Shown: piece by piece, positions 23,889 to 63,180 of the stretch
Layout: every line of letters begins with the position of its first letter
How positions within the stretch are numbered: position 1 is the stretch's first letter
Assembly: GCF_964213995.1 (NCBI RefSeq)
Contig: NW_027590138.1
Span: 310,001 to 374,000, forward strand
Source: Mustelus asterias
Taxonomy: Eukaryota
Direction of reading: 5' to 3'
Length of the DNA: 64,000 nt
Program-made: the position numbers and the translations under genes
Notes under the pieces: generated by a model
Database searches by the model: none
What the model saw: only the letters and a program-made list of their open reading frames with translations
Told to the model about the DNA's origin: nothing

Positions 23889-24799
23889 CTCAGTTCTCAA
23901 TCTGATTGACAACACAATCCAATCTCTGGAGTTGACTGTGAATTTGCTGGTGTCTCAGCAGATTGGATGACTGAGTAAATCCCATCGCACACACAGAACA
24001 CGTAAATGGTCTCTTCCCAGTGTGAACTCACTGGTGTGTCAGCAGGTTGGATGACCGAGTGAATCTCTTCCCACAATCATTGCAGGTGAACAGCCTCTCC
24101 CCAGTGTGAACTCGCTGGTGTCTGAGCAGTGCTGATGATTGAGTGAATCTCTTCCCACACCGAGAGCAGGTGAATGGTCTATCTCCCGTGTGAGTGCGCT
24201 GGTGAACGGTGAGATGAGATGATCGCCTGAACCCAGTTCCGCAGTGAGAGCACCTGAACGGTCTCTCGTCAGTGTGAACTTGTTGATGGTACATAAGTTC
24301 CTGAGAGGTTTTATAACTCTTCCCACAGTCCAGACATTTAAACGGTCTCTCGTCAGTGTGACTTCTTTGATGTGTTGTCAGGTTGGATAAATTAATGAAT
24401 CCTTTCCCACACTCGGAGCAGGTGAATGGTCTCTGCCTAGTGTGAATTCGCTGGTGTGTTAACAGCGTGGGTGACTGAGTGAATCCCATCCCACACACAC
24501 AGCAAGTGAATGGCCTCTGCCCAGTGTGTGTGCTGGTGTGTCAGCAGGGTGGATGACTTAGTGAATCCTTTCCCGCAGTCCGAGCAGGTGAACGGCCTCT
24601 GCCCGGTGTGACCACGCCGATGAGTTTCCAGCTGGGATGGATAATTGAATCCCTTCCCACAGTCCTCACATTTCCACAGCTTGTCCCCATCATAACTGCA
24701 TTTATGTTTTGACAGGGCAGATGATCGATTGAATCCCTGTCCACACACAGAACACGAGTAGGGTTTCTCTCCGCTGTGAACGGTGCTTTTTTCTTCCAT
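23889..24799 (-). pseudogene. C2H2 zinc-finger pseudogene A (10 finger repeats)
   Basis: [12 protein letters not shown] start; frameshift ~24530; TGA at 24028-24030; splice acceptor at 24909. Confidence 0.9.
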
Positions 24800-25099
24800 G
24801 TTTAAAATATGACAATATTCAGGTTACGATAAATTAGCCGACAGTATCATTCCCTAATGTGATGTTTGGTTTCAGTTTCCCAACTGCAAATCGTCCCCTT
24901 CTAAAACCCTGTGAAATTGATTTAAAACAGAAAAAAGGGAGTGAGAGAGAACCCACAAAAGCACAAAGACAGGTTGTGAAATTGAGCTGAATGAATCTGG
25001 TCACTTGTGGGGCCGGCACTGGGAAAAAGTGACCATGAAAACTGCTGGATTCAATTGATTCACTCATGTCCTTCAGGGAAAGAAACCTGCCAACTTGTC

Positions 25100-25352
25100 T
25101 GGACTCTGCACCCAGGTCCTATCCCCGGAGCCCCACATATCCTGTTACTTCCCCGAACCTACACATCTTGGGGCACTAAGGGGCAATTTAGCATGGCCAA
25201 TCCACCTAGCCTGCACGTCATTGGACTGTGAGAGGAAACAGGAGCACCCAGATGAAAACCCACGCAGACACGGGGAGACACAGTCACCCGAGGCTGGAGT
25301 TGAACCTGGGTCACTGGAGCTGTGAGGCAGCAGTGCTAACCACTGTGCTACC
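25100..25352 (-). mobile_element. HE1-like SINE
   Basis: Reverse complement of the SINE head and body. Confidence 0.75.
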
Positions 25353-25544
25353 CTTTTTCAAAGAACTGGAACAATTTTGTGAAATGTCTGGGACTATTTT
25401 ATTTTGTTAAAGACACAGTATGAATACAAATTATCTTCGCTGCCCTGATTTTGTTGTTCTGCTCATCAGTAAGAAATTGGAAGTGAAAGAGTGAAACAGT
25501 TTGATGGACAAGTTGTTCAAATTCTGTCACTGGGAAGAATTTCA

Positions 25545-25800
25545 AAACATGGCCCCTCACAAACATGGCGGCTACGCATGCGCCCTGCTGTTCCACCTCT
25601 TCAATTCCTCTCCGATCTCCCATCCGCCAAGGAACAGCAGCCGGGCAGAGCGGGCAAGAGGTGACACCAAGGAGAGCAGCAGCCGAGAGGGTTACAGCGA
25701 ACCCTGGTGGACTGGAGGGGAAACAGCAGCAGCACAGTCTCTGCGCAAAGGCTTCCGCAGTTCAGCTGCTCAAAGACTCTGAGAACCTCTTCAAATGTAA
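25545..25800. promoter_or_regulatory. Putative promoter/first-exon region upstream of ZNF-A
   Basis: CpG-rich; YY1-like AAACATGGCGGC (25561-25572); paralogous inverted copy at ~36020-36530. Confidence 0.5.
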
Positions 25801-25825
25801 ACTTCAGCTTCTCACATTCACATAT

Positions 25826-25940
25826 CCATCCCTTCCTCCATCCATCTCGCCCTCCCTCCCTCTCTCCATCCATCCCTCTCCCTCCATCCACCCCTCCTTC
25901 CATCCATTTCACTATCCCTCCCTCTCTCCATCCATCCTTT
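25826..25940 (+). repeat. (CCAT/CCCT)n pyrimidine-rich simple repeat
   Basis: Direct inspection; inverted paralog at 35926-36020. Confidence 0.85.
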
Positions 25941-26229
25941 CCGACAACAAGAACCATTCACTCTGCACAGCAGTTTCACCCTCATTCCTCCAGTCAGTAT
26001 TCCAGCCTTCATCACATCCACTCTGCTCCCAGATATTTTAGACCAATAGATATTACAATTCAAACTTCACAATCTCTACAATTTAATATTTGTTCAGTAA
26101 CCTTATAGACAGCAGAGAAATCATCAATTCCAAACCAACCCGAGCGAGAGGATATATTTATACATTTTCTCATTTCACAATAAAACCCACGCACTGAGTT
26201 TCAAATTTGCTTCTGTCATTATTTTAGTG

Positions 26230-27489
26230 ATGATGTGGAGATGCCGGCGTTGGACTGGGGTAAACACAGTAAGAAGTCTCACAACACCAGGTTAAAGTCC
26301 AACAGGTTTATTTGGTAGCAAAAGCCATTTGCTTTCGGAGCACTGCTCCTTCATCAGGTAAGTGGGAGTTCTGTTCACAAACAGGGCATATAAAGACACA
26401 AACTCAATTTACAGAATAATGGTTGGAATGTGAGTCTTTACAGGTAATCAAGTCTTAAAGGTACAGACAATGTGAGGGGAGAGAGGGTTAAGCACAGGTT
26501 AAAGAGATGTGTATTGTCTCCAGCCAGCACAGTTAGTGAGATTTTGCAAGCCCAGGCAAGTCATGGGGGTTACAGATAGTGTGACATGAACCCAATATCC
26601 CGGTTGAGGCCGTCCTCATGTGTGTGGAACTTGGCTATCAGTCTCTGCTCAGCAACTCTGCGTTGTCGTGTGTCTTGAAGGCCGCCTTGGAGAACGCTTA
26701 CCCGAAGATCAGAGGCCGAATGCCCGTGACCGCTGAAGTGTTCCCCAACAGGAAGAGAACATTCTTGCCTGGTGATTGTCAAGCGGTGTTCATTCGTCCG
26801 TTGTCGTAGCGTCTGCATGGTCTCCCCAATGTACCATGCCTCGGGACATCCTTCCCTGCAGCGTATCAGGTAGACAACATTGGCCGAGTTGCAAGTGTAT
26901 GTACCGTGTATCTGGTGGATGGTGTTCTCACATGAGATGATGGCATCCGTGTTGATGATCCGGCATGTCGTGCAGAGGTTACTGTGGCAGGGTTGTGTGA
27001 TGTCGTAGTCACTGTTCTCCTGAAGGCTGGGTAGTTTGCTGCGGACAATGGTCTGTTTGAGGTTGTGCAGTTGTTTGAAGGCAAGAAGTGGGGGTGAGGG
27101 GATGGCCTTGGTGAGATGTTTGTCTTCATCAATGACATGTTGAAGGCTCCGGAGGCGATGTCGTAGCTTCTCTGCTCCAGGGGAGTACTGGACAACGAAG
27201 GGTACTCTTTCCGCAGTGTCCCGTGTTTGTCTTCTGAGGAGGTCGGTGCGGTTTTTCGCTGTGGCGCGTCGGAACTGTCGATCGTTGAGTCGAGCGCCGT
27301 ATCCTGTTCTTATGAACAGGATTATGTAAATTATGTAAATTATTTTGTAAATTGACTGTGTGTCTTTATATGCCCTGTTTGTGAACAGAACTCCCACTCA
27401 CCTGACGAAGAAGCAACGCTCTGAAAGCTAGTAGCTTGTGCTACCAAATAAACCTGTTGGACTTTAACCTGGTGTTGTGAGACTTCTCA
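26230..27489 (-). mobile_element. Penelope-like retroelement, 5'-truncated, with inverted 5' pseudo-LTR
   Basis: GIY-YIG endonuclease ORF (NVVYLIRC...WYIGET...RQRTNEH...GLNRD); inverted terminal copy 27350-27489; 13-bp duplication CATTATTTTAGTG at 26217-26229 and 27490-27502. Confidence 0.92.
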
Positions 27490-28922: not shown

Positions 28923-29621
28923 CTATTGAATTCTTTGGTGTCTAAGCAGGTAGGATGACTGAGTGAATCTCTTCCCACTCTCAGAGCAGGTGAATGGCCT
29001 TTCCCCAGTGTGAGCTCGCTTGTGTCTCAGCAGGCTGGAGGACTGAATGAATCCCTTCCCACACTCGGAGCAGGTGAATGGCCTCTCCCCAGTGTGAATT
29101 CGCTGGTGTACAGTAAGGTTATGTGAATGCTGGAACCCAATCCCACAGTGAGAGCACCTGAACGGTCTCTCATCAGTGTGAACACGTTGATGGGACATCA
29201 GTCCCCAAGAACTTTTGAAGCACTTCCCACAGTCTGAGCATTTAAAAGGTCTCTCATCAGTGTGAACACGTTGATGGGACGTCAGTTCCCAAGAACTTTT
29301 GAAGCACTTCCCACAGTCTGAGCATTTAAAAGGTCTCTCATCAGTGTGAACTCGCTGATGAGTAAGTAGGTTGGATGACTGAGTGAATCTCTTCCCACAC
29401 TCAGAGCAGGTGAACGGCCTCTCCCCAGTGTGACTGCGCTGATGAGTTTCCAGCTGGGATGGGTAATTAAATTCCTTCCCACAGTCCACACATTTCCACA
29501 GTTTTTCCATGGAGTGACTGTACTTACGTTTTGACAGGCCAGAGGATCGGCTGAAGCCTCGTCCACACACAGAACCCGTGTACAGTTTCTCCCCACTGTG
29601 AATAGTGCTTTTTCCTTCCAT
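28923..29621 (-). CDS. C2H2 zinc-finger protein B (6 intact + 2 degenerate fingers, no effector domain)
   Basis: Open [15 protein letters not shown]..., TGERPF linkers; acceptor at 29729. Confidence 0.88.
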
Positions 29622-30083
29622 GTTCAAAATCCACTGATATTCAGTTATGATAAATTGGACGACTCTGGCAGTTCCTGATATGATATTTACTTTCAGTTTC
29701 CTGACTGCAAATCGTCCCCTTCTAGTCCCTGTGAAACTGATTTAAAACAGAAAAAAGGGGATTGAGAGAGAACCCATAGAGACAGGTGATGAACAGAGTC
29801 CAGACCGAAGCAACAGTAAAAAAAAAACACGCAGGAGGCCAGGAACCGAGTTCTGCATCCAACACGCAGCCTGATTCAAACCGGCTCCTAACTGTGTTTC
29901 TAAATTCGAACCTATAAAACAATAACACAGAAAACTCTGTGGAGACGGTATCTTCGACAAAAAACAAATCCTCGAGATATTCAGCAGACTAGGCAGCCTG
30001 TGAGAGTTACAAACAGAATTGAGGGCTCAGATTGCTGACTTGCCTTCAGTCTTTAATGAAACATCTAGAGTCAGGCACTGACT

Positions 30084-30109
30084 AATGGCGGTCACAATTC
30101 CCACAATGC
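30084..30109 (+). promoter_or_regulatory. YY1-like plus ZNF143/SBS-like motif
   Basis: AATGGCGG then GTCACAATTCCCACAATGC (cf. ACTACAATTCCCAGAATGC); second copy at 31519-31537 near a minus-strand donor at 31434. Confidence 0.5.
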
Positions 30110-32339: not shown

Positions 32340-32818
32340 AAATGCCCGTGACCGCTGAAGTGCGTCATGGGCATTCAGCCTCTGATCTTTGGGTAAACAT
32401 TCTCCAAGGCGGCCTTCACGACACACGACAGCGCAGAGTCGCTGAGCAGAAACTGATAGCCAAGTTCCGCACACATGAGGACGGCCTAAACCGGGATGTT
32501 GGATTTATGTCACACTATCAGTAAACCCCACAGCTTGCCTCCTGGACTTGCTGGCTGTCCTGTCTGGAGACAATACACATCCCTTTAACCTGTGCTTAAT
32601 GCTCCCTCCACTCACATTGTCTGTATCTTTAAGAACTGGTTGGCTGGAGAGATTTGCATTCTAATCAGTATTCTGTAACTTGATTTTGTGTCTCTTTGCC
32701 CTGTTTGAGAGCAGATTTCCACTCCATCTGACGAAGGAGCAGCGCTCCAAAAGCTAATGGTATTTGCTATCAAATAAACCTGTTGGACTTTAACCTGGTG
32801 TTGTTAAAACTGTTACTC
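32340..32818 (+). mobile_element. Penelope 3' fragment
   Basis: RRVAEQKLIAKFRTHEDGLNRD plus terminal repeat. Confidence 0.9.
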
Positions 32819-32877
32819 TGAATATATCCCCATCGCTCCGGGTGGGAGTGGAATTGATAATTTCTTGACTGTCTGTC

Positions 32878-34407: not shown

Positions 34408-34890
34408 GAAGAGAGCTTGGTTCTGCTTGTCTGTGTCACTGCTTGCGATTCTGGAAGAGAGCTTGGTCCTGCTTGTCTGTGTCACTGCTTGTGATTCTGG
34501 AAGAGAGCTTGGTCCTGCTTGTCTGTGTCACTGCTTGCGATTCTGGAAGAGAGCTTGGTCCTGCTTGTCTGTGTCACTGCTTGCGATTCTGGAAGAGAGC
34601 TTGGTCCTGCTTGTCTGTGTCCCTGCTTGCGATTCTGGAAGAGAGCTTGGTCCTGCTTGTCTGTGTCCCTGCTTGCGATTCTGGAAGAGAGCTTGGTTCT
34701 GCTTGTCTGTGTCCCTGCTTGCGATTCTGGAAGAGAGCTTGGTCCTGCTTGTCTGTGTCCCTGCTTGCGATTCTGGAAGAGAGCTTGGTCCTGCTTGTCT
34801 GTGTCACTGCTTGCGATTCTGGAAGGGAGCTTGGTCCTGCTTGTCTGTGTCACTGCTTGCGATTCTGGAAGAGAGCTTGGTTCTGCTTGT
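34408..34890 (+). repeat. 46-bp minisatellite, ~10.5 copies
   Basis: Unit GAAGAGAGCTTGGTCCTGCTTGTCTGTGTCACTGCTTGCGATTCTG at exact 46-bp period. Confidence 0.97.
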
Positions 34891-35288
34891 TTGACTCTCA
34901 GCTCAATTTAACAAAAACACCTTCCCTGCCCCCGTAGGTGATTTTCAAGGACAATGGGGCTTTCGATCACCGGCAGTTTCAGTTTAATTTAGTCAAGTCC
35001 ACACACAAAAGGCTGGAACTGCCTTGACCCCCCGTGGGTCGTTATTTCAATGTCTTCTGTGGATGGGCCGATTTCTGTGGCCATAGACTCCCTGCTGGTC
35101 TGTTTACTGTCCTTTGTCCTTCTGATGATTCGATCACTGGTGTGTCTGCCTTTTTGGCCACTTGCATATTCAGGGGGCTCACACCTTTTTTTCTCTTCGC
35201 ACAGCCCACCGACAGGTTATGTTTGTCCTGCCGAGCCTTCTGGGAGGTTTTTATCAGCCAGCAGCCAGAGTTGGCCACTTTTAAACTG

Positions 35289-35859
35289 CTACGACAACAT
35301 GAATGAACACCGCTCGACAATCACTAGGCAAGACTGTTCTCTTCCTGTTGGGGAGCACTTCAGCAGTCACGGGCATTCAGCCTTGGATCTTCAGGTAAGC
35401 GTTCTCGGCCTTCACGACACACGACAGCGCAGAGTCGCTGAGCAGAAACTGATAGCCAAGTTCCGCACACATGAGGACGGCCTAAACCGGGATGTTGGAT
35501 TTATGTCACATTATCAGTAACCCCCACAGCTTGCCCCCTGGACTTGCAGAATCTCATTAGGTGTTCTGTCTGGAGACAATACACATCTCTTTAACCTGTG
35601 TTTAATGCTCCCTCCACCCACATTGTCTGTACCTTTAAGACCTGGCTGGTTGTAGGGATTTGCATTCTAATCAGTATTCTGTAACTTGATTTTTGTGTCT
35701 CTGTGCACTGTTTGAGAGCACATTTCCATTCCATCTGACGAAGGAGCAGCGCTCCGAAAGCTTATGGTATTTGCTACCAAATAAACCTGTTGGACTTGAA
35801 CCTGATGTTGTGAGACTTCTTACTGTGTTCACCCCAGTCCAATGCTGGCATCTCCACAT
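35289..35859 (+). mobile_element. Penelope 3' fragment nested in the LTR
   Basis: GIY-YIG C-terminus; 13-bp duplication CACTTTTAAACTG at 35276-35288 and 35860-35872. Confidence 0.9.
35731..35767 (+). ncRNA. Minimal type I hammerhead ribozyme (Penelope terminal repeat)
   Basis: CCAT-CTGACGA-A-GGAGC-AGC-GCTCC-GAAA-GCT-T-ATGG. Confidence 0.8.
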
Positions 35860-38514: not shown

Positions 38515-39804
38515 TCACTGGTGAAGTCGCTGGTGTCTCACCAGGTTGTATGACTGGGTGAATCCCTTTCCACACATTGAACAAGTGAACGGCTTCTCCT
38601 CACTGTGAACTTGTTGGTGTCTCACCAGGTTGTGTGACTGGGTGAATCCCTTTCCACACATTGAACAAGTGAACGGCTTCTCCTCACTGTGAACTTGTTG
38701 GTGTCTCAGCAGAGTGGATGACCGGGTGAATCCTTTCCCACACTCAGTGCAGGTGAACGGTTTGTCCTCAGAGTGATTTCGCTGGTGTGCGAGCAGAAGT
38801 TTTCTGCTTTTAAAGCTCTTCTCACAGTCAGAACATTTGAACGGTCTCTCATTTGTGTGAACAAGTTGGTGTGAAGTGAGAGAGGATAAACAAGTGAATC
38901 CCTTCCCACACACAGGGCAGGTGAACGGCCTCTCCCCAGTGTGAATTCGCTGGTGTACAGTGAGGTCGCCTGATCGCCTGAAGCCAGTCCCGCAGTGAGA
39001 GCATGTGAATGGTCTCTCGTCAGAGTGAACACGTTGATGGTGACGTAGTTCCTCAGAACTTTTATAGCCCTTCCCGCAGTCTGGACATTTAAACGGTCTC
39101 TCTTCACTGTGAACTCGTTGGTGTTTCTGCAGGTTGGATGATCGGTTAAATCCCTTCCCACATTCAGAGCAGGTGAATGGCCTCTCTCCAGTGTGAATGC
39201 GCTCATGTGCCACAAGGTGGAATGATGTCCTGAACCCCTTCTGGCAGTGGGAGCAGCTGAACGGTGTGGAACCGGTGTGAATGTACTGGTGCTCCCGGAG
39301 TGTGCGTGGAGTTTTAAAACTCTTTCCACACTCAGTGCATTAAAACTCTCTCCTGACGGTGTGAACTCGCTGGTGTCTCTGCAGGGCAGAGAAATCTGTG
39401 AATCCCTTCCCACACTCAGAGCAGGTGAAAGGCCTCTCCCCTGTGTGAATGTGCCGATGTATCAGCAGGGCCGATGACTGAGTAAATCCTTTTCCACATT
39501 CGGAGCAGGTGAACTGCCTCTCCCTGCTGTGAATGCGCTGGTGAATCAACAGGCCAGCTGTCTGAGTGAATCCCTTCCCACACACAGGGCAGCTAAAAGG
39601 TCTCTCTCCAGTGTGAGTGCGTTGGTGATTTTGCAGGTCAACTGGATAATTGAATCCTTTCCCACAGTCTCCACATTTATACGGTCTCTCCCTGGTGTGA
39701 CTGCGCTTGTGTCTCGACAGGCCAGATGATCGATTGAAGCCTTGTCCACATACAGAACACATGTACAGTGTCTCCTCTCTGTGAACGGTGCATTTTTCTT
39801 CCAT
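38515..39804 (-). pseudogene. C2H2 zinc-finger gene C, 15 fingers, single in-frame TAA after finger 5
   Basis: ORFs 39340-40128 and 38515-39213 share a frame; only lesion is TAA at 39340-39342; acceptor at 39911. Confidence 0.88.
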
Positions 39805-40473
39805 GTTCAAAGGCCGATGATGTTCAGATCCTGATGAATCAAAGCTCCCTGTCTGATCTTGATGTGATCCTTGATTTACAATTTTCTGTAATTCCTCACC
39901 TTCTAATCCCCTGAAAAATGAATTGAAAACAGAAAGTGGGAAACATGAGAGACAAGCCATAAATATACAAAGACAAAATGTGAAACTGAGTTGATCTAAT
40001 CTGGTAAATTGTGGGATTGGGACTAGGAAATAGTGGATATGAAAGATGCTGGATTGTGACAAAGCCTCAAACTGTTTACCAATGCACTGAGGGAAAGGAA
40101 CCCTCCACCTCTTCAGAGCCAACAACAAGAATCCAGCCTTTATGCGTGAAGAGGGAGAGGTCGGGAGGAGGGTGACGGAGAGAGATTTTATACATCAGCA
40201 ACTCAACCAGGATTTTGGCAGAATCTCCTAAACCCACAATCTTCCCCACCTGGAAGTACCAGAGCAGCTGCGACATGGGAAAACCTCACAACTCCCTGAC
40301 TTGGACAAATATCACTGTCCCTTCAACGTGACTGGGTTAAAATTCTAATACTCTTGCATTGTGGGAGCACCTACGGACTGCAGAGGTTCAAGAAGAAGGC
40401 CAACTATCACCATCACAAAGGACAATTGGTGATTGGTAACATATGATAGTCATAGTCTGTGATAGTAATTCAT

Positions 40474-42500: not shown

Positions 42501-42649
42501 GACAATAATAAATCAAAATTATCCACCAGTTCCCACTTCTGTTCTTTCTGATGAATGAAGGATCTGTGCACAGCTTTTCCGACCCTCCTCCCAATCTCCA
42601 CATCACAGCAAAAAGATCACCAGTCAACAATAACGACTTTCAATGACGG

Positions 42650-43060
42650 AGGGTTTACCCAGCATTCGCCGCGGTGGTGAATGTCCCCTAGTGACACCTG
42701 AGGAAGGCACCGCGCAGGCGCAGAATTACCAGATTTGGCGCATGCGCACCGTCAGTTATGGCGATGGGGTGAGTCTCTCTTTTTGTCTCTTTGCCACGGG
42801 GAAGGCAGCGGAAACTCTGAAGGAGCGATGGAGCCGGCTCTGGATAGGGAGAGTTTCTAAACACCTGGTGGACGCCTCAAACCCCGATTGAGACTCTGCG
42901 CTTCCGTGTTTGCAGCTCCGGATCTTTTTCCGCCCGGAGGCCCAAGTCCAGGTTAACGGCCGCTATCTTGGATCAGCGAGAGGCGCATGCGCCAGGGTCT
43001 TCGTTGCGCAATAGTGAGGGCGGGGCTGAGATTTTACAGTTCCCACCGGGTCCTAGTTTC
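42650..43060. promoter_or_regulatory. CpG-rich bidirectional promoter between ZNF-C (-) and ZNF-D (+)
   Basis: NRF1-type GCGCATGCGC at 42738 and 42983; YY1-like GCCGCTATCTTG; GC box; donor GTGAGT at 42769. Confidence 0.75.
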
Positions 43061-43139
43061 CAGCACATTAGAGTTAACATTGATCTTTCGTGTCAGAAGT
43101 AGGTTTACATTGACAGGATAATGAATCTGTAGAGAAAGA

Positions 43140-43412
43140 TCAATTCGTGTCAGAAGTAGGTTTATATTGACACGACAATGAAGTTACTGTGAAAATCCCC
43201 TCGTCGCCACACTCCGGCGCCTGTTCGGGTCCACTGAGAGAGAATTTAGCATGGCCAGTGCACCTAACCAGCACATCTTTCGGACTGTGGGAGGAAACCT
43301 GAGCACCTGAAGGAAAGCCACACAGACACAGGGATAATCTGCAAACTCTACACAGACAGTGACCCAATCCGGGAACTGAAGCCAGGTCTAACCACTGTGT
43401 CACTGTGCCTCC
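43140..43412 (-). mobile_element. SINE
   Basis: Same family as 19462 and 52430. Confidence 0.75.
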
Positions 43413-44477
43413 CAGCAAACTGGGCAACAGGTGTCTAAACAGTTTCACCCGCTCCCAGCCTGCAGCTGATGTTTGCAGGAGTCCATGAACCATGTACATA
43501 TTCAGTGTGAGAGGTTGCAGTCCCTGAAGGAGCTGCTTCTCCACTTTTAGTTACACTTCTATTCTGCCCCATGCTCCTAATCATTGGCTTCCCATGTGGA
43601 GGAGGCTTGGGAGGTCAGAGGACCTTTTCCTGGACCTGCTCTCTTGGGGCTGGTTAAAACAGTGATTTGTAGATCAGCATGGGGTAACTAGGCTGTTGGC
43701 CTCTCTTCCGTGGTCTTGTCCATGCTCGTGTGGTCCTGGAGAAGAACCGTGCAGTGTCGACTGGAACACTCGATACCTCCCACAACTCAGGGTACAGAGT
43801 GTCTCATAGACACTGGAAACAAAGTTCTGGTTTAGTTGAGATGGAAGTTTGATTGGACCACAAGATTGGGGAAACAAAAGAGAAAAGAATATTCCATGGA
43901 AATGAGAATTGTCTGTTCTGACTTTCTATCCTGTGCTGACAATGATACTGACTCTGTCAATGTCTTTTACAAGGTCCACAAGGGCGATGAATTGCAGATG
44001 GGAAACTGAAACCAAACATCACATCAAGAGCTGATAGAGTCACTCAATTCATCAGAACCTGAATATCATCGACCTTTAAATGTGGAAGGAGAAATGTTTT
44101 TCTGTTTTGGCGGTGAGGAAAGATTTCAAACATCAGTGTGACTGGAAAAGCACCGAGACACACACACACCCGAGTCAGAGTGTTCCAGTGAACTGACTGT
44201 GGAAAGAGCTTTAACCGGTTACACAGCCTGATTTTTAAAAAGTGTCATTATTCACAGCAGAGAGCCAAAGGATGAGAAGATCTTGGAGCAGAATTAGGCC
44301 ATTGGGCCCATTGAGTCTGCTCCACTATTCACTGATCTGATATAATCCTGAACTCCACTTTCCAGCCTTATCCCCATGACCCTTGATTCCCTTACTGAGA
44401 AATAATACACAAGTTCTTTATGTGGACAAGGCTTGAACAGATTGTTTAACCTAGAGAGACGCAAGGACACCCACACC

Positions 44478-45302
44478 ATGGAGAAACCATGGAAATGTGG
44501 GGACTGTGGGAAGGGATTCAGTTACCCATCGCTGCTGGAAATACATCGCCGCAGTCACACTGGGGAGAGACCATTCACCTGCTCCGTGTGCGGGAAGGGA
44601 TTCATTCAGTCATCCCACCTGCTGACCCACCAGCAAGCTCACATTGAAGAGAGGCTTTTTAACCACTCTGACAGCGATAACAACTCTAAAAGCTCTGAGG
44701 ACCTGGTCAAGCACCAGATTGTTCACATTGCAAGACAGTTCAGTTGCTCTCATTGTGGGAAGCTGTTTAAACGATCACAGAACCTCATTGAACACGAACG
44801 CACTCACACTGGGGAGAGGCCATTCATCTGCTGTGTGTGTGGGAAGGAATTCACACGATCATCCCACCTCGCTACACACCGACTGGTTCACACTGATAAC
44901 AGACCTTTCAAATGTACTGAATGTGAGAAGAGTTATAAAACCACAAGTGATCTGCTGATACACCAGCGAGTTCACAATGGGGAGAGGCCATTCAGATGTA
45001 CAGTGTGTGGGAAGGGATTCACTCTTTTATCCAGCCTCCAGAAACACCAGCGAGTTCACACTGGGGAGAGGTCATTCGCCTGCTCCTTGTGTGGAAAAGG
45101 ATTCATTTATTTAACCAGCCTCAGATCACACCAACTTGTTCACTCAGATAAGAAACCTTTCAAATGTTCTGAATGTGAGAAGAGCTTTAAGACCTCAAGT
45201 GTTCTGCTGAGGCACCAACAAGTTCACTCCGGGGAGAGACCATTCACCTGCTCTGACTGTGGAAAGGGATTCACTCGTTCATCCAACCTGCAAACACACT
45301 AG
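44478..45302 (+). CDS. C2H2 zinc-finger protein D (8 intact fingers; TAG truncates finger 10; finger relics continue to ~45527)
   Basis: ACCATGG Kozak, MEKPWKC...; in-frame finger sequence beyond the TAG; acceptor at ~43973. Confidence 0.82.
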   Translation: MEKPWKCGDCGKGFSYPSLLEIHRRSHTGERPFTCSVCGKGFIQSSHLLTHQQAHIEERLFNHSDSDNNSKSSEDLVKHQIVHIARQFSCSHCGKLFKRSQNLIEHERTHTGERPFICCVCGKEFTRSSHLATHRLVHTDNRPFKCTECEKSYKTTSDLLIHQRVHNGERPFRCTVCGKGFTLLSSLQKHQRVHTGERSFACSLCGKGFIYLTSLRSHQLVHSDKKPFKCSECEKSFKTSSVLLRHQQVHSGERPFTCSDCGKGFTRSSNLQTH

Positions 45303-46179
45303 CACATTCACACCGGGGAGAAACCGTTCACTTGCTCTGAGTGTGGGAAGGGATTTTCTCACTCACCCCACCTGCTGAGACACCAACAAACTCACAATGG
45401 AGAGAGACCGTTCACCTTCTCTGAGTGTGAGATGGGATTCACTCAGTCAACCCATCTTCTAACACACCAGCAAATTGACAAGTGTCTGGAGGAATTGGAT
45501 TCTGCTGTTATTCACATCCAGGACTGAACAGTCTTCATTCTGACAGTTGGGGTGTGTTTTTGCTGATGTTAGTGATTACTATAACTGGGCTGGGGTTTAT
45601 TACTCTGGATAAATGTCAAATTAACTAATATTGTTTAAGACACAAAGCTGAGACCTTCATTTCTCCAGGATAAGAAAATATTAATCAATGTCTTGTTACC
45701 AATTGCTGCATTTTTGTGGCCTTTTCTCCTTCCTAGTTCTAGATTATTTCAGTTTTCATACCTTGTTACTCTCCTGGACAAGTCCCAGCTCCCCATACCT
45801 TCCAGAGTGTCTTTCCTGGCCTTGGAATCCATGGAAGGCATCAGTAACACATCCACGATCACCAAACACAAATCACAGTTGTTTGCACTGATCCACTTCT
45901 TTCCCCAGTCATTCAGGATGGTGATATTTGTGGAGCTTTCTCTCTCTGTGATTTGTTTAATTGTCCCCCACCATTCACGACTGGATGTGGGGGGACTGCA
46001 GCTTTGATCTGATCCGTTGTTTGTGGGATCGCTTGGCCCTGCCTGGAACATGCTGCCTCCACTGTTCAGCGTGCTTATAGTCCCATGTTACAGAGTAACC
46101 AGGTTGGAATCTCAGTTTTAGGGTGCCTAGTGCTGCTCCTGACTTGTTCTCCTACACTCCATGTTGAACTAGGGGAGGT

Positions 46180-50018: not shown

Positions 50019-51131
50019 TTACTTGTGAATTTGCTGGTGTCTCAGAAGATTGGATGACTGAGTGAATCTCTTCCCACACTTGGGGCAGGTGAACGGCCTC
50101 TCCCTGGTGTGAACTCGCTGGTGTGTCAGCAGGGAGGATGACTGAGTGAATCCCTTCCCACACTGAGAGCAGGTGAATGGCCTCTCCCCAGTGTGAACTC
50201 GCTGATGTACAGTGAGGTCAGATGATGTCTTGAACCCAGCGTCACAGTGAGAGCACCTGAATGGTTTCTCGTCAGTGTGAACACGTTGATGGCGCATCAG
50301 TTCCCCAGAACTTTTAAAGCACTTCTCACAGTCTGGGCATTTAAAAGGTCTCTCCTCAGTGTGAACTCGTTGATGGTGGAGCAGTTGCCGGGAACTTTTG
50401 TAGCACTTCCTGCAGTCTGGGCATTGAAATGGTCTCTTCTCATTGTGAACACTCTGGTGATTCAGCAGAGTGGATAATTGAGTGAATCCCTTTCCACACT
50501 CAGAACAGGTGAAAGGTCTCTCCCCAGTGTGAATTCGCTGGTGGGTCCGCAGGTTAGATGACCGACTGAACCCATTCCCACACACTGAGCAGGTGAATGG
50601 CCTCTCCCCGGTGTGAATTCGCTGGTGCTCAGTGAGTTGAGATGATTGTTTGAACCCAGTCCCACAATGAGAGCATCTGAATGGCCTCTCGTCACTGTGA
50701 GCACGTTGATGGAGTATCAGGTCCCGGGAACTTTTATAGCACTTCCCACAGTCTGGACATTTGAATGGTCTCTCGTCAGTGTGAACTCGCTGGTGCGCCA
50801 TCAAGTCAGAGGACCGAGCAAATCCTTTCCCACACTCTGAGCAAGTGAAAGGTCTCTTTCCAGTGTGAACTCGCTGGTGTCTCAACAGGTTGCCTGACTG
50901 AGCGAATCCCTTCCCACAGTCGGAGCAATTGAAAGGTCTCTCTCCAGTGTGAACTCGCTGGTGTTGCAGCAGGCTGGATGAGCGAGAGAATCCCTTCCCA
51001 CACTTGGAGCAAGTGAATGACCTCTCCCCAGTGTGTCTGGGCTGATGAGTTTCCAGTTCACATGGAGATCTGAATCCCTCCCCACATTCCCACTGTTTTT
51101 CCCCACTGTGAACAGTGCCTTTTCCTTCCAT
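50019..51131 (-). CDS. C2H2 zinc-finger protein E (12 intact fingers + 1 degenerate)
   Basis: Uninterrupted [15 protein letters not shown]...HQQIHK; acceptor at 51241. Confidence 0.92.
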
Positions 51132-51699
51132 GTTCAAAATTCACAAATATTCAGCTTACAATAAATTGGGTGACTCCATCTGATCCTGATGGGATGTTTG
51201 GTTTGAGTTTTCTGATTGGAAATCCTCCACTTCAGATAATCTAAAATTGATTTTAAACAGAAAAAAGGGGATGAGAAAGAACTCACAAAGGCAGGTTGTG
51301 AAATTGAGCTGAATGAATCTGGTCATTTATGGGGCTGGCACAAGGAAAAAGTGACCATGAAACCTGTTTGATCCTTTGTCAGAAGTGAAATGGTCACTAA
51401 TGTCCTTCAGGGAAGAAAGCCTGCCTCTGGTCTGAGTCTACACAAGGTTCTGGCCTCTGCAAGAACACAAGAAATAGGAGCAGGAATAGGCCATTCAGCC
51501 TATCGAGGCTGCTCTGCCTTTCAACCACATGTCATCATCATATTCAATGATGTAGCACCCTGGGCCAGAGAAATCTATGTTACAAGAGAGACAGAGAGAG
51601 AGACAGAGAGAAAGTAGCAAGAGACAGGGGCAAATGGGAGGCATTCTCTCGACCTAGAACTGAACCACAATCTCATAATCCCTCAACCTCCACCACCTG

Positions 51700-52297: not shown

Positions 52298-52429
52298 CCA
52301 GGGCAGCAAGAGTATGTGGACACCATCACCTGCAAGTTCCCCTCCAAGCTACATAGCATCCGAACTTGTCTGACATCCAAGGCTGGATGAGCAGAAATGT
52401 CCCCCATTTAAATACTAAAGTTAAAGCTA

Positions 52430-52705: not shown

Positions 52706-53239
52706 ACATATATTGACAAATGCTGATCTACAAACAAATGCTCACTGATCTACAATGCTTCATTTTAAGATGCACCAAGATTGTAAATTTCTTATCCTTG
52801 TTTTCCTCCATGGTTGCAATCATCCCAATCTCTGTAATCTCCTCCAGGCCCACACCCTCCGAGATCTCAGCACTCATCTAATTTTGAGCATTCCCGATTT
52901 TAATCGTTCCAACATTACTGATTTTGCCTATTTCAGAAGCTCTGGAATTCCCTCCTTAAACCTCTCTGATTCAGCACCTCACTTTTCTCAGTTAAGATTC
53001 TCCTTAAAACCTAATATCTCGTCATGTGACTCAAAGTCAATTGTTATTTCATAACATTTCTCTGAAATGTCTTCAAAAGTTTAATTCTATTCATGCACAA
53101 TATAAATACAAATAATGGTGACTGCCCTGGATATATATCATTGTTCTGCCTCATCAGTCAGAAACTGGAAGTGACAGAGTGAAACAGGCTGATAGAGATT
53201 CTCACTTGGAGATAATCAAAATTGTTGCCCCCAACAAAG

Positions 53240-53790
53240 GTGGCGGCGATGCGCACATTCTGCTGCTCCTGCCCCGAACAAAGATGGGGCCGCGCATGCG
53301 CTCTGCTGCTAATGCCTGGATAAAGATAGCGGCCGCTAAACCCAGCTCTGTGAGAAAGCTGCGGCCCCTGCTACAGGGAGGAGGCAACGGTTCACGGGAA
53401 ACGGTGGGGTATTTTTCCGCATTTGCGGTTTATGTAACGTGTTTACGGAACGTATCCAGTCACACCTGATCCGTGGTTCCCTTCGTCTCGCCATTCTCTC
53501 CGTTACGGATGGCAGATCCAAGGAACAAAATCTTGTCTCCGTCGCCATTAACTGGACTGCGCATGCTTCACTCACAGCCAAGCCCCGCCCCCTCATTCAC
53601 TCTGATTGGTTGGAGGACCAGCCGCTCCGATCGGTCCTCCAGTCCCGCCCTCTCTCCCTAATGGTCCCAAGCAGCTGTCAATCACTCCCTGGGCATTGTG
53701 AGGTCCCCGGGAGAGGGCAATGTCGGTGGGCGTGTTTAGTGCAATCTGGATTCTCAGCATTGGCGCGGGAGTGGGGACCTGACTGAAGTT
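53240..53790. promoter_or_regulatory. Bidirectional promoter between ZNF-E (-) and ZNF-F (+)
   Basis: NRF1-type motifs at 53292 and 53557; YY1-like AAGATAGCGGC; GC boxes; ATTGG; CTGTCAATCA at 53675-53684. Confidence 0.8.
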
Positions 53791-54649
53791 TACCAATTCT
53801 GAGGGACATGTTTTGCAGGAAACCTTTCCTCTTGTTAGAGGGGTCAGTAACCAGGCGGTTTGGCTCCTCTCAGAAAAACTCCACGCAGTCAGTTCTGGAC
53901 ACAAGGTCTGTTACTCTAGAATCATAAAATCCCTACAGTGCAGAAGGAGGCCATTTGGCCCATCGAGTCTGCACCCAGGCCCCATCTCCACAACCCCATG
54001 CATTCACCTTGCTCGCCCCCCGCCCCTCCCACCCAACACCAAAGGGCAATTTAGCATGGCCAATCCACCTAACCTGCACATCTCTGTGGACATCATTCTA
54101 TACCAAATTTGTCAAAAGCATACAGAAATAATTATCCATAACTTTATTTCGATTTCAGCCCAGGGAGGAGGGAGTGTGTGTGGGATGGGCATTTACAGAT
54201 TTGGGGGAACAACAGACAGAAACATATTCCAGAGAAGCTAGAATTGTCGGTTCTGCATCTTAATACTGGACTGACACTGGTTACATTTTAAAATTCATTT
54301 TACAGGAAAGGAGAACATTTGCATACAGGAAATTCAAATCAAACATCACATCAAGATCTGATACCCTCATATTATTCATCAGGATCTGAATATCATCAGC
54401 CTTAGGATGGAGAAAAACTTCATTTTCTAGATTCAATCTGTGGAAAAACCTTCCAAACATCAGTGTGATTAGAAAAAGCATCAAGATATACACCTGAGTG
54501 TTGCAGTGAAGTGAGTTTTGACTAGTTTCACAACCTGAAAAAAAACATTGTTCCAGTGACAGCGGGGGACTCGATAGTAAACTTATTCTGGATGTGAGCA
54601 ACGCTTCAACTGACTGTCCAACCTGAAGAGGCACAAGAGCTCTGGCTGT

Positions 54650-55404
54650 ATGGAGAAACCATGGAAATGTGAGGATTGTGGTAAAGGATTCAATTATCCA
54701 TTCCATCTGGAAATCCACTGACACAGCCACATTGGAGAAATCGTGGAAATGTGAGGACTGTGGTAAAGGATTCTATTCCCCATCCCTGCTGAGAAATCAC
54801 CAATGCATTCACACTGGGGAGAAGCCGTTCACCTGCTCTGTATGTGGGAAGGGATTCACTCAATTAGCCGGCCTCACATTACACCAGCGAGTTCACTCAG
54901 GAGAGACCATTCATCTGCTCCGAGTGTGGGAAAGGATTCACCAATTCATCCCACCTGCTGACACACCAACTTATTCACACTGAGGAGAAGCCATTTATCT
55001 GCATTCACTGTGGAAAGAGGTTCAGGTCCTCAGCCAACCTCACTGCGCACCAGCGAATTCACACTAGGGAGAAGCTGTACACCTGCTCCGTGTGTGGGGA
55101 GGAATTTGCCCAGTTATCCAGCCTCCAGTACCACCAGGAAGTTCACACTCAGGAGAGGCCATTCAACTGCAGTTCTTGTGGGAAGAATTTCAGATCTTCA
55201 TCCAACCTCATTGAACACCAGCGAGGTCACACTGGGGAGAGGCCAGTTATCTGCTCTATATGTGGGAAGGGATTTACAAAGTCCTCCAACTTGATGATAC
55301 ACCAGTGAATTCATACCGGGGATAGGCCATTTATCTGCTGTGTGTGGGGGAAGGGATTCACTGAGGCAGCTAAAGAGTGGAGACATCAGCGAGTTCACAA
55401 GTGA
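54650..55404 (+). pseudogene. C2H2 zinc-finger pseudogene F (~9 finger repeats)
   Basis: [10 protein letters not shown] start; TGA ~54719; frameshift ~54900; TGA ~55306. Confidence 0.88.
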
Positions 55405-58590: not shown

Positions 58591-59564
58591 ATTAAGGGGA
58601 AAAGACCCAACAATGGAACAATCAGTAACAGGACATCAATCAGTCTCCTCTTAGTGAAATCAAGGACTCCGACACTGAGTTTGTCACAAAGCTGATTTAA
58701 TTATATACAGATTATTAAACTCCAGCCCAGTTCCAGGGATTATTAACGTCAACTGAGAAAAAAAACTCCAAATGTCAGAATGAACACAGTTGAGTCCCGG
58801 ATGTGATTAAAGCAGAATCCAACCCCTGGAATCACTTGTTATCTCACTGGTGTGTCTGCAGGGTGAATGAGAATAAATTGCTTCTCTCTCACACTGCAGG
58901 TGAAAGGCCTCTCCAGTATCTGTGGGTTGGTGTCTCAGCAGATTACTATTTTCATATTAATTTACAGGATGTGGACATCTCTGTCCACATCCCATTCCGA
59001 GGAGATTATCACCTCCAGCGATCAGCGGAGATCAGTATTTCCTTCATCCGGGATCTTATCTATTACAGGTTGTATGTCTTTTATGTATCATATCTAAACT
59101 GTTGCTTCTTAATAACTGAGTGAAAAATCACCGATGACTTCTATCCATTTTTCAAACGCTCAGGCCAGCATTTATTGCCCCTTCCTCATTACTCTGTGAA
59201 GGTGGTGGTGAGCTGCCTTCTTCAATCACTGCAGTCCCTATGATGCAGGTACACGTGCTGTTAGGGAGGGAGCTTTTAAACCTCTTCTCACAGTCCAACC
59301 ATTTAAACAGTCTTTTCTCATTGTGAACAAGTTGATGTTCACTGAGATACAATGACTGAGTGAATCCCTTCCCACACATGGAGCAGGTAAACAGCCTCTG
59401 CTCAGTGTTGTGCTTGTGTTGCAGCAGATCCATTGCACTTTTAAATCTCGTCACAATCAGAACATCAAAACCATTTATTTTTCGGTCTGAACAAGTTGAT
59501 GTGAAATAAAGCTGCTGAACTGATTGAATCCCTTGTCTCACACGGAGCAGGTGAACATACTCCC

Positions 59565-60731
59565 TCAGTGGGAGTGCACTGGTGTTTTAGCAGGCTGGAT
59601 GACACTTCCCACACTCAAATCAGATGAATGGCCTCCCACCAGTGTGAACCCGCAGGTGTTCAGTGATTTGGGATGAAGTAGTGAATCAGTTCCCAGATGA
59701 AGAGCAGCTGAACAGCCTCTCTCAGTGTGAGTGGTTTGGTGTCTCTGCAGATTCCCTGCACTTTTAAAGCTCTTTCCACAGTCAGAGCATTTAAATGGTC
59801 TCTTATCAGTGTGAACAAGCTGATGGTTGCTGAGCTGTGATGACTGAGTGAATCCCTTCCCACACACAGAGCAAGCAAACGGCCTCTCCCCTGTGTGAAG
59901 AGGCTGGTGTTTCATCAGTTCATTTCTGCTTTTAAACCTCTTCCCACAGTCAGAACATTTACAGGGTCTCTCATCGGAGTGAACAATTTTGTGTCTTCTG
60001 AGGTAGGATAAACATGTGAATCCCTTGCCACATAGGGAGCAGGTGAAAGGTTTCTCCCCAGTGTGAAGACTCTGGTGTTCGCTGAGGTGAGATGTCGTAG
60101 TGAATCTCTTCCCACACTCAGCGCAGGTGAATGGTCTCTCTCCAGTGTGGATGTGCTGGTGTCGAAGAAGATGGGATGATTTAACAAATCCTTTCCCACA
60201 AAAGGAGCAAACAAACGGTCTCTCCCCAGTGTGAACACGCTTGTGTTCAGTGAGGGTGGAATACTGCCTGAAATGTTTCCCACACTGAGAGCAGCTGAAT
60301 GGTCTCTCCCCAGTGTGAACACGTTTGTGTTCAGTGAGGTGGGAAGCACAAGTGAATCCCTTCCCACACATGGAGCAGGTGAAGGGTTTCTCCCCAGTGT
60401 GAACACGTAGGTGTTCAGTGAGGTGAGATACTTGCCTGAAGTTCTTCCCACATTGAGAGCAATTGAATGGTCTCTCGCCAGTGTGAACCCGTTGATGGTG
60501 AATTAAACCCTCAGAACTCTTAAAACTGTTCCCACAGTCAGAGCATTTAAACGGTCTGTCCTCAGTGTGAACTCGCTGGTGTGACACCAGGCTAAATGAC
60601 TGAGCGAATCCTTTACCACACATACAGCAGATGAATGGTCTCTCCCCAGTGTGACTGCGTCGATGAATTTCCAGCTGAGATGGGGTTTTACACACTTTTC
60701 CACAGTCTTCACATTTCCACTGTTTCTCCAT
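59565..60731 (-). CDS. C2H2 zinc-finger protein G (12 intact fingers; frameshifted tail; relic fingers to ~59270 and at 58830-58945)
   Basis: ACCATGG Kozak; 388-aa ORF; acceptor at 61091. Confidence 0.88.
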   Translation of the reverse strand: MEKQWKCEDCGKVCKTPSQLEIHRRSHTGERPFICCMCGKGFAQSFSLVSHQRVHTEDRPFKCSDCGNSFKSSEGLIHHQRVHTGERPFNCSQCGKNFRQVSHLTEHLRVHTGEKPFTCSMCGKGFTCASHLTEHKRVHTGERPFSCSQCGKHFRQYSTLTEHKRVHTGERPFVCSFCGKGFVKSSHLLRHQHIHTGERPFTCAECGKRFTTTSHLSEHQSLHTGEKPFTCSLCGKGFTCLSYLRRHKIVHSDERPCKCSDCGKRFKSRNELMKHQPLHTGERPFACSVCGKGFTQSSQLSNHQLVHTDKRPFKCSDCGKSFKSAGNLQRHQTTHTERGCSAALHLGTDSLLHPKSLNTCGFTLVGGHSSDLSVGSVIQPAKTPVHSH

Positions 60732-61325
60732 GGTGCTGGTGTCTTTGTGTCTCTCCAGGTTGGATGATCTGTTAAATCCTCGTCCACACAGAACACGTGT
60801 ACGGTTTCACCTGACAGTAAATGGTGTGATGTTTTTCAGGCTGTGTAACTGGTTAAAGCTCTTTCCACAGTCAGTTCACTGGAACAGTCTCACTCCAGTG
60901 TGTGCATGTGTCTCGATGCTTCTCCAGTCACACTGATGTTTGAAATCTTTTCCCACAGGCAGAACAAACATTTTTCCTTCCACGTTCAAAGGCTAATAGT
61001 GTTTAGGTGCTGATAAATCGAATGATTGTAAAATATTCATATGAAATTTGATTTGAGTTTCCAGTCTGTGAATCTTCCCCTTCAAATATCCTGCAAAAGA
61101 AGAGAACAAAACTCCTGTCAGTCCAGGATCAAAATTCTGAACAGACAATTCTAGTTTCTCTGGAACATTTTTTCCGCTTGTTCCCCCAAATCTGTAAATC
61201 CCCGTCCCACACACTCTCCCTCCTCCCTGGGCTGAAATCCAAACCTATCTCACGATCTCCAACATTCTTTTCCTCCATTCCCAGTTTTCTCCCTCCCTCC
61301 CTCTCCTCTGTCTGGATTCAGTTCT

Positions 61326-62209
61326 GATCAATGACATGTCATTGATGAAGACAAACATCTCGCCAAGGCCATCCCCACACCCCCACTTCTTGCCTTCAAA
61401 CAACCGCACAACCTCAAACAGACCATTGTCCGCAGCAAACTAACCAGCCTTCAGGAGAACAGTGACCACGACACCACACAACCCTGCCATAGCAAACTCT
61501 GCAAGATGTGCCGGATCATCGACACGGATGCCATCATCTCACGTGAGAACACCATCTACCAGGTACACGGTACCTACTCTTGCAACTCGGCCAATGTTGT
61601 CTACCTGATACGCTGCAGGAAAGGATGCCCCGAGGCATAGTACATTGGGGAAACCATGCAGACGCTACGACAACGGCTGAATGAACACCGCTCGACAATC
61701 ACCAGGCAAGACTGTTCTCTTCCTGTTGGGGAACACTTCAGCGGTCATGGGCATTCAGCCTCTGATCTTCGGGTAAGCATTCTCCAAGGCGGACTTCACG
61801 ACACACGACAGCGCAGAGTCGCTGAGCAGAACTGAGAGCCAAGTTCCGCACACATGAGGGCGACCTAAACCGGGATGTTGGGTTCATGTCACACTATCGG
61901 TAACCCCCACAGCTTGCCTCCTGGACTTGCAGAATCTCACTGGCTGTCCTGTCTGGAGACAATACTCATTTCATTAACCTGTGCCTAATGCTCCCTCCAC
62001 TCACACTGTCTGTATCTTTAAGACCTGATTAGCTGTAAAGATTCGCATTCTAATCAGTATTCTGTAACTTGATTTTCTGTCTCTGTATGCCCTGTTTGAG
62101 AGCAGATATCCACTCAATCGGACAAAGGAGCAGCGCTCCGAAAGCTCATGGCATTTGCTGCCAAATAAACCTGTTGGACTTTAACCTGGTGTTGTTAAAA
62201 CTCTTACTG
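61326..62209 (+). mobile_element. Penelope element, 5'-truncated, in the ZNF-G intron
   Basis: GIY-YIG coding remnant; 13-bp duplication TGGATTCAGTTCT at 61313-61325 and 62210-62222. Confidence 0.92.
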
Positions 62210-62429
62210 TGGATTCAGTTCTCCAGCTCCTGTCTGCAGACTGACAGTAAAACCAATGGGTCTTATTGGGGGTGTTGGGGCCTCCAGCGGGTGTTTGTGA
62301 ATCCTCCCCGCCCACCTCCCAGGGTTTCCTTCCTTCCCAGAGATCAGAGTCCTCATTGATTTGAGGCCAAAGTGTAACCTCTTATTTATTGTCCCCCTCC
62401 CCCATCCTCTGATGTGAACCATCCTCCAG

Positions 62430-63180
62430 TGGCTGAGCCAGGATGGGGCCGTTAACCTGGGCCTGTTCCCGGGAGGGAGGGAGGGAGAAGCCCCGCAGCT
62501 GCAAACCAGGGAGCTGACAATGATTCTGAAGGGTTTGCGGATCCACAAAGTGTTTCCAAATCCTCCCAGCCACCGCCTAACGCTGACTCCGCTTCTCCGG
62601 GACAAACAAGCGCCAAGGACAGCAATGACACTGCGCATGCTCCGCATCACAATGCCCAGGGGACTGATTGACGGCAGCTCCGAACCAATCGGAAGAGGGG
62701 GCGGGACTGGAGGACCGAGCGGGAGCGGCTGGTCCTCCAACCAATCGGAGTGAATGAGGGGCAGACCTGAAACATGCGCAGCTCCGGACCAATCGGAAGA
62801 GTTCCCTGTTCCACGCATGGGAGAAGTGCGCATGCGCGGTAAGCAAAGGCGTTTGCAGCACGCGCAGTGCGGGTGACAGCGACTGGAGAGAAGTTCCTGT
62901 GTCTCATCAGCAGCCGGTAAGGATGCAGAAACATAGAGGGAGCAATGGAACCGGCGGATGGACGTAGAGGGTTTCTAAATACCTGTTGAAGGCCTCAAAC
63001 ATCGAATATGAGCCCGTAGGTCCCGTGTTTGCAGCTTCAGGTCTTTTTCCCGAGACAAAGCTCAGGTTAACAGCCGCCATCTTGATTGAGCAGGGAGCAG
63101 AGCGCATGCGCTGGTGTTTTGGTGACGCAACCGTGAGGGGGCGGGTCTTTGTGTTTCTGCTCCCACCGGGTCCTAGTGCT
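62430..63180. promoter_or_regulatory. Bidirectional promoter for ZNF-G (-) and a predicted + strand partner
   Basis: TGATTGACGG-N10-CCAAT; further CCAAT boxes; GC boxes; NRF1-type motifs at 62828 and 63102; YY1 GCCGCCATCTTG at 63073-63084. Confidence 0.8.

Follow-up and report, generated by a model that had tools for sequence, protein, structure and literature searches.

What kind of gene family do the C2H2 zinc-finger (ZNF) genes standing back to back around CpG islands in a shark belong to, and do their products act without an attached effector domain? The question is raised by a stretch of 64,000 nucleotides of Mustelus asterias (the window hereafter; positions 310001-374000 of contig NW_027590138.1, which is contig C106 of G000, the 3.68-Gb genome analysed), in which seven such genes, A to G, were delimited. 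The answer that we consider probable, with appreciable doubt, is that they form a cluster evolving by birth and death and made up of two-exon shark C2H2 genes, whose short non-coding exon 1 likely comes from a CpG-island module and whose products would consist of fingers only. The genes have a common splice acceptor and stops ahead of the first methionine, they have been duplicated in blocks, many copies are broken, and the zinc ligands are under purifying selection.

A single homologous acceptor opens the finger exons of all seven genes. In total, the window with its flanks, together with 92 fetched loci, supplied 137 complete arrays, of which 135 have a detectable acceptor and two have none. 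In-frame stops between this acceptor and the first finger occur in 119 of the 135, so that no upstream domain can be joined there in these arrays, and the leader is closed in every copy for 37 of 41 families. The linker is open in the 16 others: 14 of the 15 copies of the C family, plus two singletons. The reading frame mostly restarts at MEEK/MEGK or MEKPWKC. The exact 22-nt MEKPWKC start motif has 2,641 matches in the genome against 0 for the reversed control, a count in which dead copies and two-motif arrays are included, as haplotypes perhaps are too.

A reading of the same DNA made from its letters and open reading frames (ORFs), referred to below as the sequence-only reading, had described proteins with varied contact residues and no KRAB, SCAN or BTB domain in view, and both points hold. 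The 357 fingers display 269 distinct signatures at positions -1, 2, 3 and 6. No Pfam match above cut-off (and two weak ones below) was obtained in 140 stop-free stretches of at least 34 aa, taken on the sense strands between the islands and the finger exons of C to H; for A and B, the scan took in one of 118 such upstream stretches, a 275-aa ORF. The KRAB profile PF01352 gave 0 matches in G000 (76 candidates scored, with a short profile and without a positive control). No SCAN or BTB domain was found upstream of the arrays of C to H in the Pfam scan, BTB having been searched there and not genome-wide. The SCAN search of G000 matched at 146 of the 150 scored places (604 candidates), none of them on C106 or C71. 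These SCAN-like matches are dispersed across large contigs, many with stops, and we take them to be probably gag sequences of long terminal repeat retrotransposons.

The genes were next examined with respect to their islands. Three CpG islands, paralogous to one another, had been reported as the points from which the pairs C/D and E/F and gene G lead away; coordinates and homologies proved to be as claimed, and the missing partner of G, gene H, was found about 4 kb past the window end (plus strand, window-equivalent 67890-69044). The islands lie at 42640..43110 for C/D (GC 0.58 and observed/expected CpG ratio, o/e, 0.89 over 42640-43060), 53220..53790 for E/F (GC 0.57, o/e 0.77) and 62540-63180 for G/H (GC 0.57, o/e 0.80). 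Elsewhere in the window the same cut-off is passed by only two 300-bp stretches, 4141-4440 and 61581-61960. Positions 53557-53701 align with the inverted 62647-62781 in 117 of 147 columns, 42790-43060 with 62900-63180 in 198 of 287, and 43441-43523 with 63221-63307 in 66 of 90 (self-BLAST E values 9e-33, 9e-27 and 1e-12).

Three layouts can be distinguished. The G/H cassette is built of a CCAAT core flanked by two arms that mirror each other. Its left arm (62372..62617, minus strand) is the predicted exon 1 of G, with a putative donor GTGGAT at 62546 placed by homology to the D-type donor; its core (62647..62830) contains three CCAAT boxes, a GC box and NRF1-like sites; its right arm (62918..63149, plus strand, YY1-like site at 63074) is predicted to be exon 1 of H with the first part of the intron, where the donor-homologous position reads TT and candidate GTs occur at 62839 and 62917. 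The E/F cassette has one arm, the predicted exon 1 of E (53261-53479, donor GTAAAC at 53446), and a core with CCAAT and GC boxes (53557-53701). The C/D cassette has one arm and no core; NRF1-like sites are present at 42712, 42738 and 42983 and a YY1-like site at 42960, and the likely exon 1 of D (plus strand) ends at 42867 before a donor GT at 42868. The names NRF1 and YY1 are those that we presume for these motifs. Upstream of A or B neither a CpG island nor an arm match was found; in A, an E-type arm is reduced to a stub near 25560-25590.

Twelve arm types align across the NRF1-like site, the YY1-like site and a conserved TGTTT/TGCTT, which, read outward from the core, is part of the GTAAAC/GTAAGC donor in E-type arms; in C/G-type arms a GT lies 9 bases beyond the E-type donor position. 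One contig of run X2, which is from a relative and which we guess to be RNA, connects 42869 and 43981 across 5 letters; this joint keeps the register of a GT-AG intron 42868-43973 and leaves no space for an additional exon. In runs X1, X4 and X21, with 15 of 500 joints listed, no exon joint was seen, and uncovered bins of the intron in X1, X2 and X4 were given no weight. From the donor alignment and the X2 joint, exon 1 is likely the part of the arm nearest the core, the YY1 and NRF1 sites lying in intron 1 and facing back, and the cassette is likely a directional module made of a non-coding exon 1 followed by an intron. Among 20 loci taken at intervals from exact motif matches on C71 and C87 (the motif-picked loci), an array is present on the side of exon 1 in 17, and all 17 are in the exon-1 sense. 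A donor at CAG|GTTAAC was considered and dropped in view of the X2 joint, the arm alignment and P0121, a gene model of Mustelus asterias in which the arm, taken in the opposite direction with a donor at 42864, opens a C-type gene as its first exon; the two transcripts would thus overlap. The near-palindrome at 42860-42869 carries two abutting donors that face opposite ways, each on its own strand, one being that of the X2 joint and the other that of P0121.

These observations qualify the proposal of a bidirectional promoter. Divergent pairs do share a CpG island, but the constant unit is directional. Transcript evidence covers one direction and comes from the relative's X2 contig, the contigs carrying neither strand nor start; the other direction is that of the P0121 gene model. 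Vertebrate bidirectional CpG-island promoters carry NRF1, NF-Y, Sp1 and YY1 sites, and the same motif set lies between the divergent shark genes; the shark module differs in being one paralogous unit present at hundreds of sites, with mirror-image exon-1 arms in the G/H type (predicted starts). In 16 C/D cassettes divergence at CpG sites is 0.134 against 0.099 at other sites (1.35-fold), whereas in the next intron it is 0.281 against 0.049 (5.8-fold); the low CpG divergence of the cassettes fits islands unmethylated in the germline. The left arm of the G/H type (62200-62600) is 94-99% identical between loci whose adjoining core is only about 77% identical, and it recurs at window-equivalent 89.5 and 104.7 kb beside other finger exons, a pattern suggestive of recent arm swapping or conversion.

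The state of the arrays was then determined. Within the window, clean frames are found in B and E only. Gene E (exon 50019..51240, minus strand, fingers 50025-51011) has 12 fingers in an intact 370-aa ORF whose ATG, at 51131, is preceded by the acceptor and two in-frame stops, and gene B (28923..29741, minus strand, fingers 29010-29492) has 6 fingers in an open frame. Gene A (23889..24914, minus strand, fingers 23938-24670) is broken, with 9 fingers over two frames and one stop. In gene C (38515..39910, minus strand, fingers 38521-39759, 15 in total) the acceptor AG at 39912-39911 is followed by an open 35-codon linker, an ATG at 39804 and a premature stop at 39342-39340, which leaves a frame of 154 aa. 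Gene D (43974..45400, plus strand, fingers 44496-45395) has its acceptor AG at 43972-43973, a leader with stops, an ATG at 44478 and a stop at 45300-45302, in the second-last of 10 detected fingers; 11 of the 19 copies of its family are intact. Gene F (54306..55400, plus strand, fingers 54668-55314) is broken over three frames with two stops, and none of the 5 copies of its family is intact. Gene G (59323..61090, minus strand, fingers 59323-60713 plus a decayed finger to 60966) has a leader of decayed fingers with stops, an ATG at 60731 and 12 fingers in frame, followed by a frameshifted tail. The decay of A, C, D, F and G had been overlooked previously, as had the lack of a CCAAT core in the C/D island and the lack of an island or arm upstream of A and B. 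Over the finger span, 75 of the 137 arrays are intact and 62 broken. A protein search with the whole of E was dominated by generic ZNFs (two of the best 120 of 7,890 matches came from cartilaginous fish).

Selection was estimated by parsimony, counting changes in 87 arrays that represent 7 families of recent paralogues, with the F family excluded for want of an intact reference; the counts are crude, use no codon model, and dead copies shift every omega toward 1. With all sites, omega was 0.17 for the Cys/His ligands, 0.27 for Phe/Leu and 0.60 for both the contact positions and the other finger positions. Without CpG sites, the corresponding values were 0.23-0.27, 0.29-0.35, 0.70-0.83 and 0.55-0.65. 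Replacements of Cys/His numbered 22, against 81-97 expected. The zinc ligands are thus under purifying selection and the finger fold has been maintained. No positive selection was seen at positions -1, 2, 3 and 6 among these recent paralogues, omega exceeding 1 solely in one family, the least changed of all (3 replacements), and at this depth no arms race is visible. The suggestion that the family targets transposons consequently gains no support from the contact positions.

To place the window in its genomic setting, loci were fetched from cassette searches, in each of which 40 candidates, out of 1,983, 345 and 1,502, were scored. Divergent arrays within 5 kb were found at 18 of 20 loci of the C/D type, 16 of 20 of the E/F type and 1 of 12 of the G/H type; among the other G/H-type loci, 5 of the 12 have one array pointing away and 5 a tandem arrangement. 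Amplification as head-to-head pairs, proposed in the sequence-only reading, therefore stands in part: the 34 divergent loci of 40 were chosen by likeness to the window C/D and E/F cassettes and are mostly block duplicates, and the proportion is 11 of 20 at the motif-picked loci. Multi-gene blocks are apparent, a G/H match lying 7-10 kb from 12 of 22 E/F matches in the window's order, and an E/F match accompanying 5 of 33 C/D matches. Cassette identity correlates with that of D (rho 0.89, n=18) and not with that of C (rho 0.26, n=18) at loci chosen along the identity ranking, and so the gene pairs recombine.

Further clusters of the same family are located at C12:54.3-55.3 Mb, C16:92.2-93.0 Mb and C23:3.3-4.7 and 11.1-12.4 Mb, and 6 of 11 fetched arm-bearing loci on C12, C16, C23 and C75 are ZNF-linked. 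[quoted passage not shown] Their relatives (150 scored of 1,669) occur in both orientations and largely on cassette-bearing contigs, five others being 98-100% identical. The window also contains four copies, 83-90% alike, of one repeat (26265-27400, 32364-32823, 35288-35827 and 61334-62211), which looks Penelope-like to us and one copy of which holds a 275-aa ORF without a Pfam match, and, at 34408-34893, tandem repeats of a 92-bp unit that are 96-97% alike.

The cassette is also found away from the genes. The arm motif has 276 exact matches in the genome, against 0 for the control, and 23 of the 30 first-listed matches, on large contigs, belong to one element of about 570 bp with ends TAGGGAGGCCA...TGGCCACCCTA, flanked by 8-bp target duplications. 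The duplication is present with at most 1 mismatch in 20 of the 21 complete elements among 30 loci, and the duplications are distinct, three copies on C8 with a common duplication representing one insertion. A longer relative (L192:1627-3568) encodes a Dimer_Tnp_hAT match of 23.9 bits (cut-off 21.4), and L198 a weak one; in these two loci, 3.5 and 6.4 kb lie between the matching duplications, and the transposase remains are interrupted by pieces of long interspersed nuclear elements. Terminal inverted repeats (TIRs), 8-bp duplications and a relative with a transposase match identify the element as a hAT. Its interior, with the part homologous to the G/H core at the left, comprises core, exon 1 and arm, that is, the whole cassette, and an interior search retrieved 38 places, 88-100% alike (40 of 993 candidates scored). 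None of the 8 copies checked has a finger array within 5 kb.

The left end of the element has 49 exact matches. At 40 of these loci, 11 have the ZNF cassette, 15, 6, 3 and 2 have four other cargos, and 3 have none; the remaining 9 coincide with matches of the interior search, which brings the ZNF cassette to 20 of 49. Three of the other cargos have a CpG o/e of 0.9-1.1 and one of 0.19. Cargo 2 (L121, L136, L150), in which a YY1-like site is present, is related to TIR-less members of another multicopy family; it was rejected as a second ZNF promoter, a finger array being found within 5 kb of none of 14 such relatives. Cargo 3 (L122, L126, L129, L131, L132) is rich in TGACGCAA-like repeats and cargo 4 (L124, L205, L206) in CCAAT boxes; cargo 5 is found at L128 and L195. 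In the window, the translation of 25600-26110, in place of the promoter of A, resembles by eye ORFs beside the cargo-2 relatives L212, L213 and L223. On C71, locus L151 is a TIR-less copy, 87% alike, inside the ZNF cluster, flanked on one side by a linker exon and on the other, at a distance of about 8 kb, by a 7-finger array. With this TIR-less host copy and insertions bearing distinct duplications, the element has the features of a multicopy Pack-TIR, L151 being a candidate for its exact parent or a relative of it. It is likely that a non-autonomous hAT captured the cassette from the genes and spread it to about 38 places. Copies unlinked to ZNFs had been named beforehand as the mark of a mere repeat; such copies exist, and they look like capture and not like the origin of the genes.

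We can now propose how the family arose. A short non-coding exon 1 would be spliced onto the finger exon, so that intact copies are predicted to yield finger-only DNA-binding proteins, which may act through DNA occupancy or through partner binding by the fingers. One directional promoter and exon-1 module would have been duplicated in mirror image, or else become attached to another gene, and the back-to-back pairs that resulted probably have their CpG island in common. Multi-gene blocks would then have multiplied and recombined among TCR V segments, and later a non-autonomous hAT would have captured one cassette and transposed it. Several points weigh against this proposal. The splice is taken from one contig of a relative, which may be a paralogue; the open C-family linker together with P0121 implies that some members can carry an N-terminal extension; since 62 of the 137 arrays are broken, the signal of selection may in part date from earlier times; and the loci come from ranked lists and not from a random draw, while unplaced contigs may hold uncollapsed haplotypes.

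Other explanations must be set against it. That the cassette was born in the transposon, the hAT having seeded the ZNF promoters instead of capturing one, could be thought of on account of the roughly 38 copies between hAT ends. This is very improbable: the element is young, its copies being 88-97% alike against differences of up to 30% among ZNF-linked cassettes, hAT ends were found at 0 of the 20 motif-picked cluster loci, BLAST of the element against ZNF-linked loci matched internal positions 112-549 only, among the matches listed, and the same ends carry at least 4 other cargos. The ZNF blocks might also be a passive by-product, dragged along by a duplication-prone antigen-receptor region and mostly dead or redundant, as the broken arrays, the near-identical blocks across many contigs and the V-like segments in both orientations on the same contigs would suggest. 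The deficit of Cys/His replacements, the retention of CpGs in the islands and the clusters on the other large contigs C12, C16 and C23 speak against it, and we regard it as improbable. We think the same of the idea that the genes are not effector-less, alternative exons supplying an unrecognised effector in the form of a short peptide at the N-terminus or a tail at the C-terminus. P0121 does join a 33-aa arm peptide in frame to an open C-family linker, and the linker is open in 16 of 135 arrays. However, the arm frame is unconserved, window C has ATA where the peptide starts, and P0121 is the sole match of the 46-aa linker among proteins of 239-762 aa (5.8 billion proteins searched); its first exon and linker are letter-identical to loci L058 and L060, and it is therefore not independent. 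A conserved N-terminal peptide starting at the ATG of the YY1 site was likewise rejected, frames of 93-125 nt in all three phases, with stops, being found across arm families.

More weight, yet still well short of the explanation that we favour, is given to a shark counterpart of the KRAB- and FiNZ-ZNFs, which would bind young transposons, recruit a repressor in trans and expand in an arms race. The size of the family (2,641 exact start motifs), its diverse contact residues and its rapid turnover agree with this possibility. So does the correlation of ZNF and retroelement numbers in animals regardless of accessory domains, given in the main text of PMC10547256, and the loss or absence of KRAB families in cartilaginous fish, given in PMC8455134; the contact-position omega of 0.60 pooled, or 0.70-0.83 without CpG sites, disagrees. 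A broader version, in which more than 1,000 finger-only ZNFs form a regulatory or transposon-defence system on one two-way promoter module without attached effector, and hAT export puts dozens of distant loci under the same control, appears to us unlikely, slightly more so than the counterpart just described.

Compared with known systems, the cluster resembles the KRAB zinc-finger protein (KRAB-ZFP) clusters of sarcopterygians in its C2H2 arrays clustered and placed in a last exon, its gene and segment duplication, its varied fingerprints and its many dead copies (PMC10547255 and PMC10547256). Here too the tandem C2H2 fingers are all encoded by one terminal exon. In contrast to the KRAB-ZFPs, no KRAB exon in frame with the array was found at the N-terminus (140 intronic ORFs without Pfam match, stops in 119 of 135 arrays), exon 1 is likely non-coding, and no positive selection of contact residues is seen. 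The statement in the sequence-only reading that KRAB-ZFPs often use bidirectional promoters was not confirmed, "bidirectional" and "head-to-head" being absent from the text of PMC10547255. Like the FiNZ-ZNFs of cyprinids, the shark family is lineage-specific and counts hundreds of genes or more; the zebrafish FiNZ-ZNFs lie in a region rich in transposable elements and immunity genes (PMC10547256, main text), the shark ZNFs among TCR V segments. FiNZ is however a conserved 28-aa coding exon in a positively selected family (same source), whereas the shark exon 1 keeps DNA motifs and not a frame; no FiNZ-like conserved short coding exon was seen, the arm frame differing between families, in an examination that did not use the FiNZ profile itself. 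Built like the KRAB- and FiNZ-ZNF clusters, the shark family thus lacks both their domain exon and their positive selection, and is assigned to neither; that it works as they do is doubtful.

The hAT element is comparable to Pack-hAT-N8_XT of Xenopus tropicalis, which has hAT ends, distinct duplications, a captured GC-rich 5' gene region and a TIR-less parent elsewhere (PMC8277862). According to the main text of that source, which mentions no sharks, multicopy Pack-TIRs number four cases in 100 genomes and the frog example has three copies. The shark element differs by its roughly 38 places with the ZNF cassette and by the at least 4 other cargos, three of them CpG-rich, between the same ends. 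[quoted passage not shown] In the shark genome analysed, the V segments are on the same contigs as ZNF cassettes; zinc-finger genes are unmentioned in the main text of PMC12227049. The main text of PMC10547256 contains none of "shark", "chondrichth" and "cartilaginous", and its data files may hold shark ZNF counts. In the literature searched, from which subscription journals and supplements were outside, no description was found of the ZNF family, of its promoter or of a shark Pack-hAT. The family is real and undescribed in that literature, and the likely hAT capture of its cassette is new here.

The KRAB-ZFP system is missing in cartilaginous fish. The family described here is very large and has one acceptor and one promoter module, so that it could be targeted as a whole, as was done with FiNZ-ZNFs in zebrafish. 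If bare arrays repress transposable elements, tandem-finger defence would predate the effector domain and would not require it. The hAT family, for its part, has captured CpG-island DNA repeatedly and in multiple copies, which is rare among vertebrates, and offers a natural test of whether a promoter that has been moved stays active.

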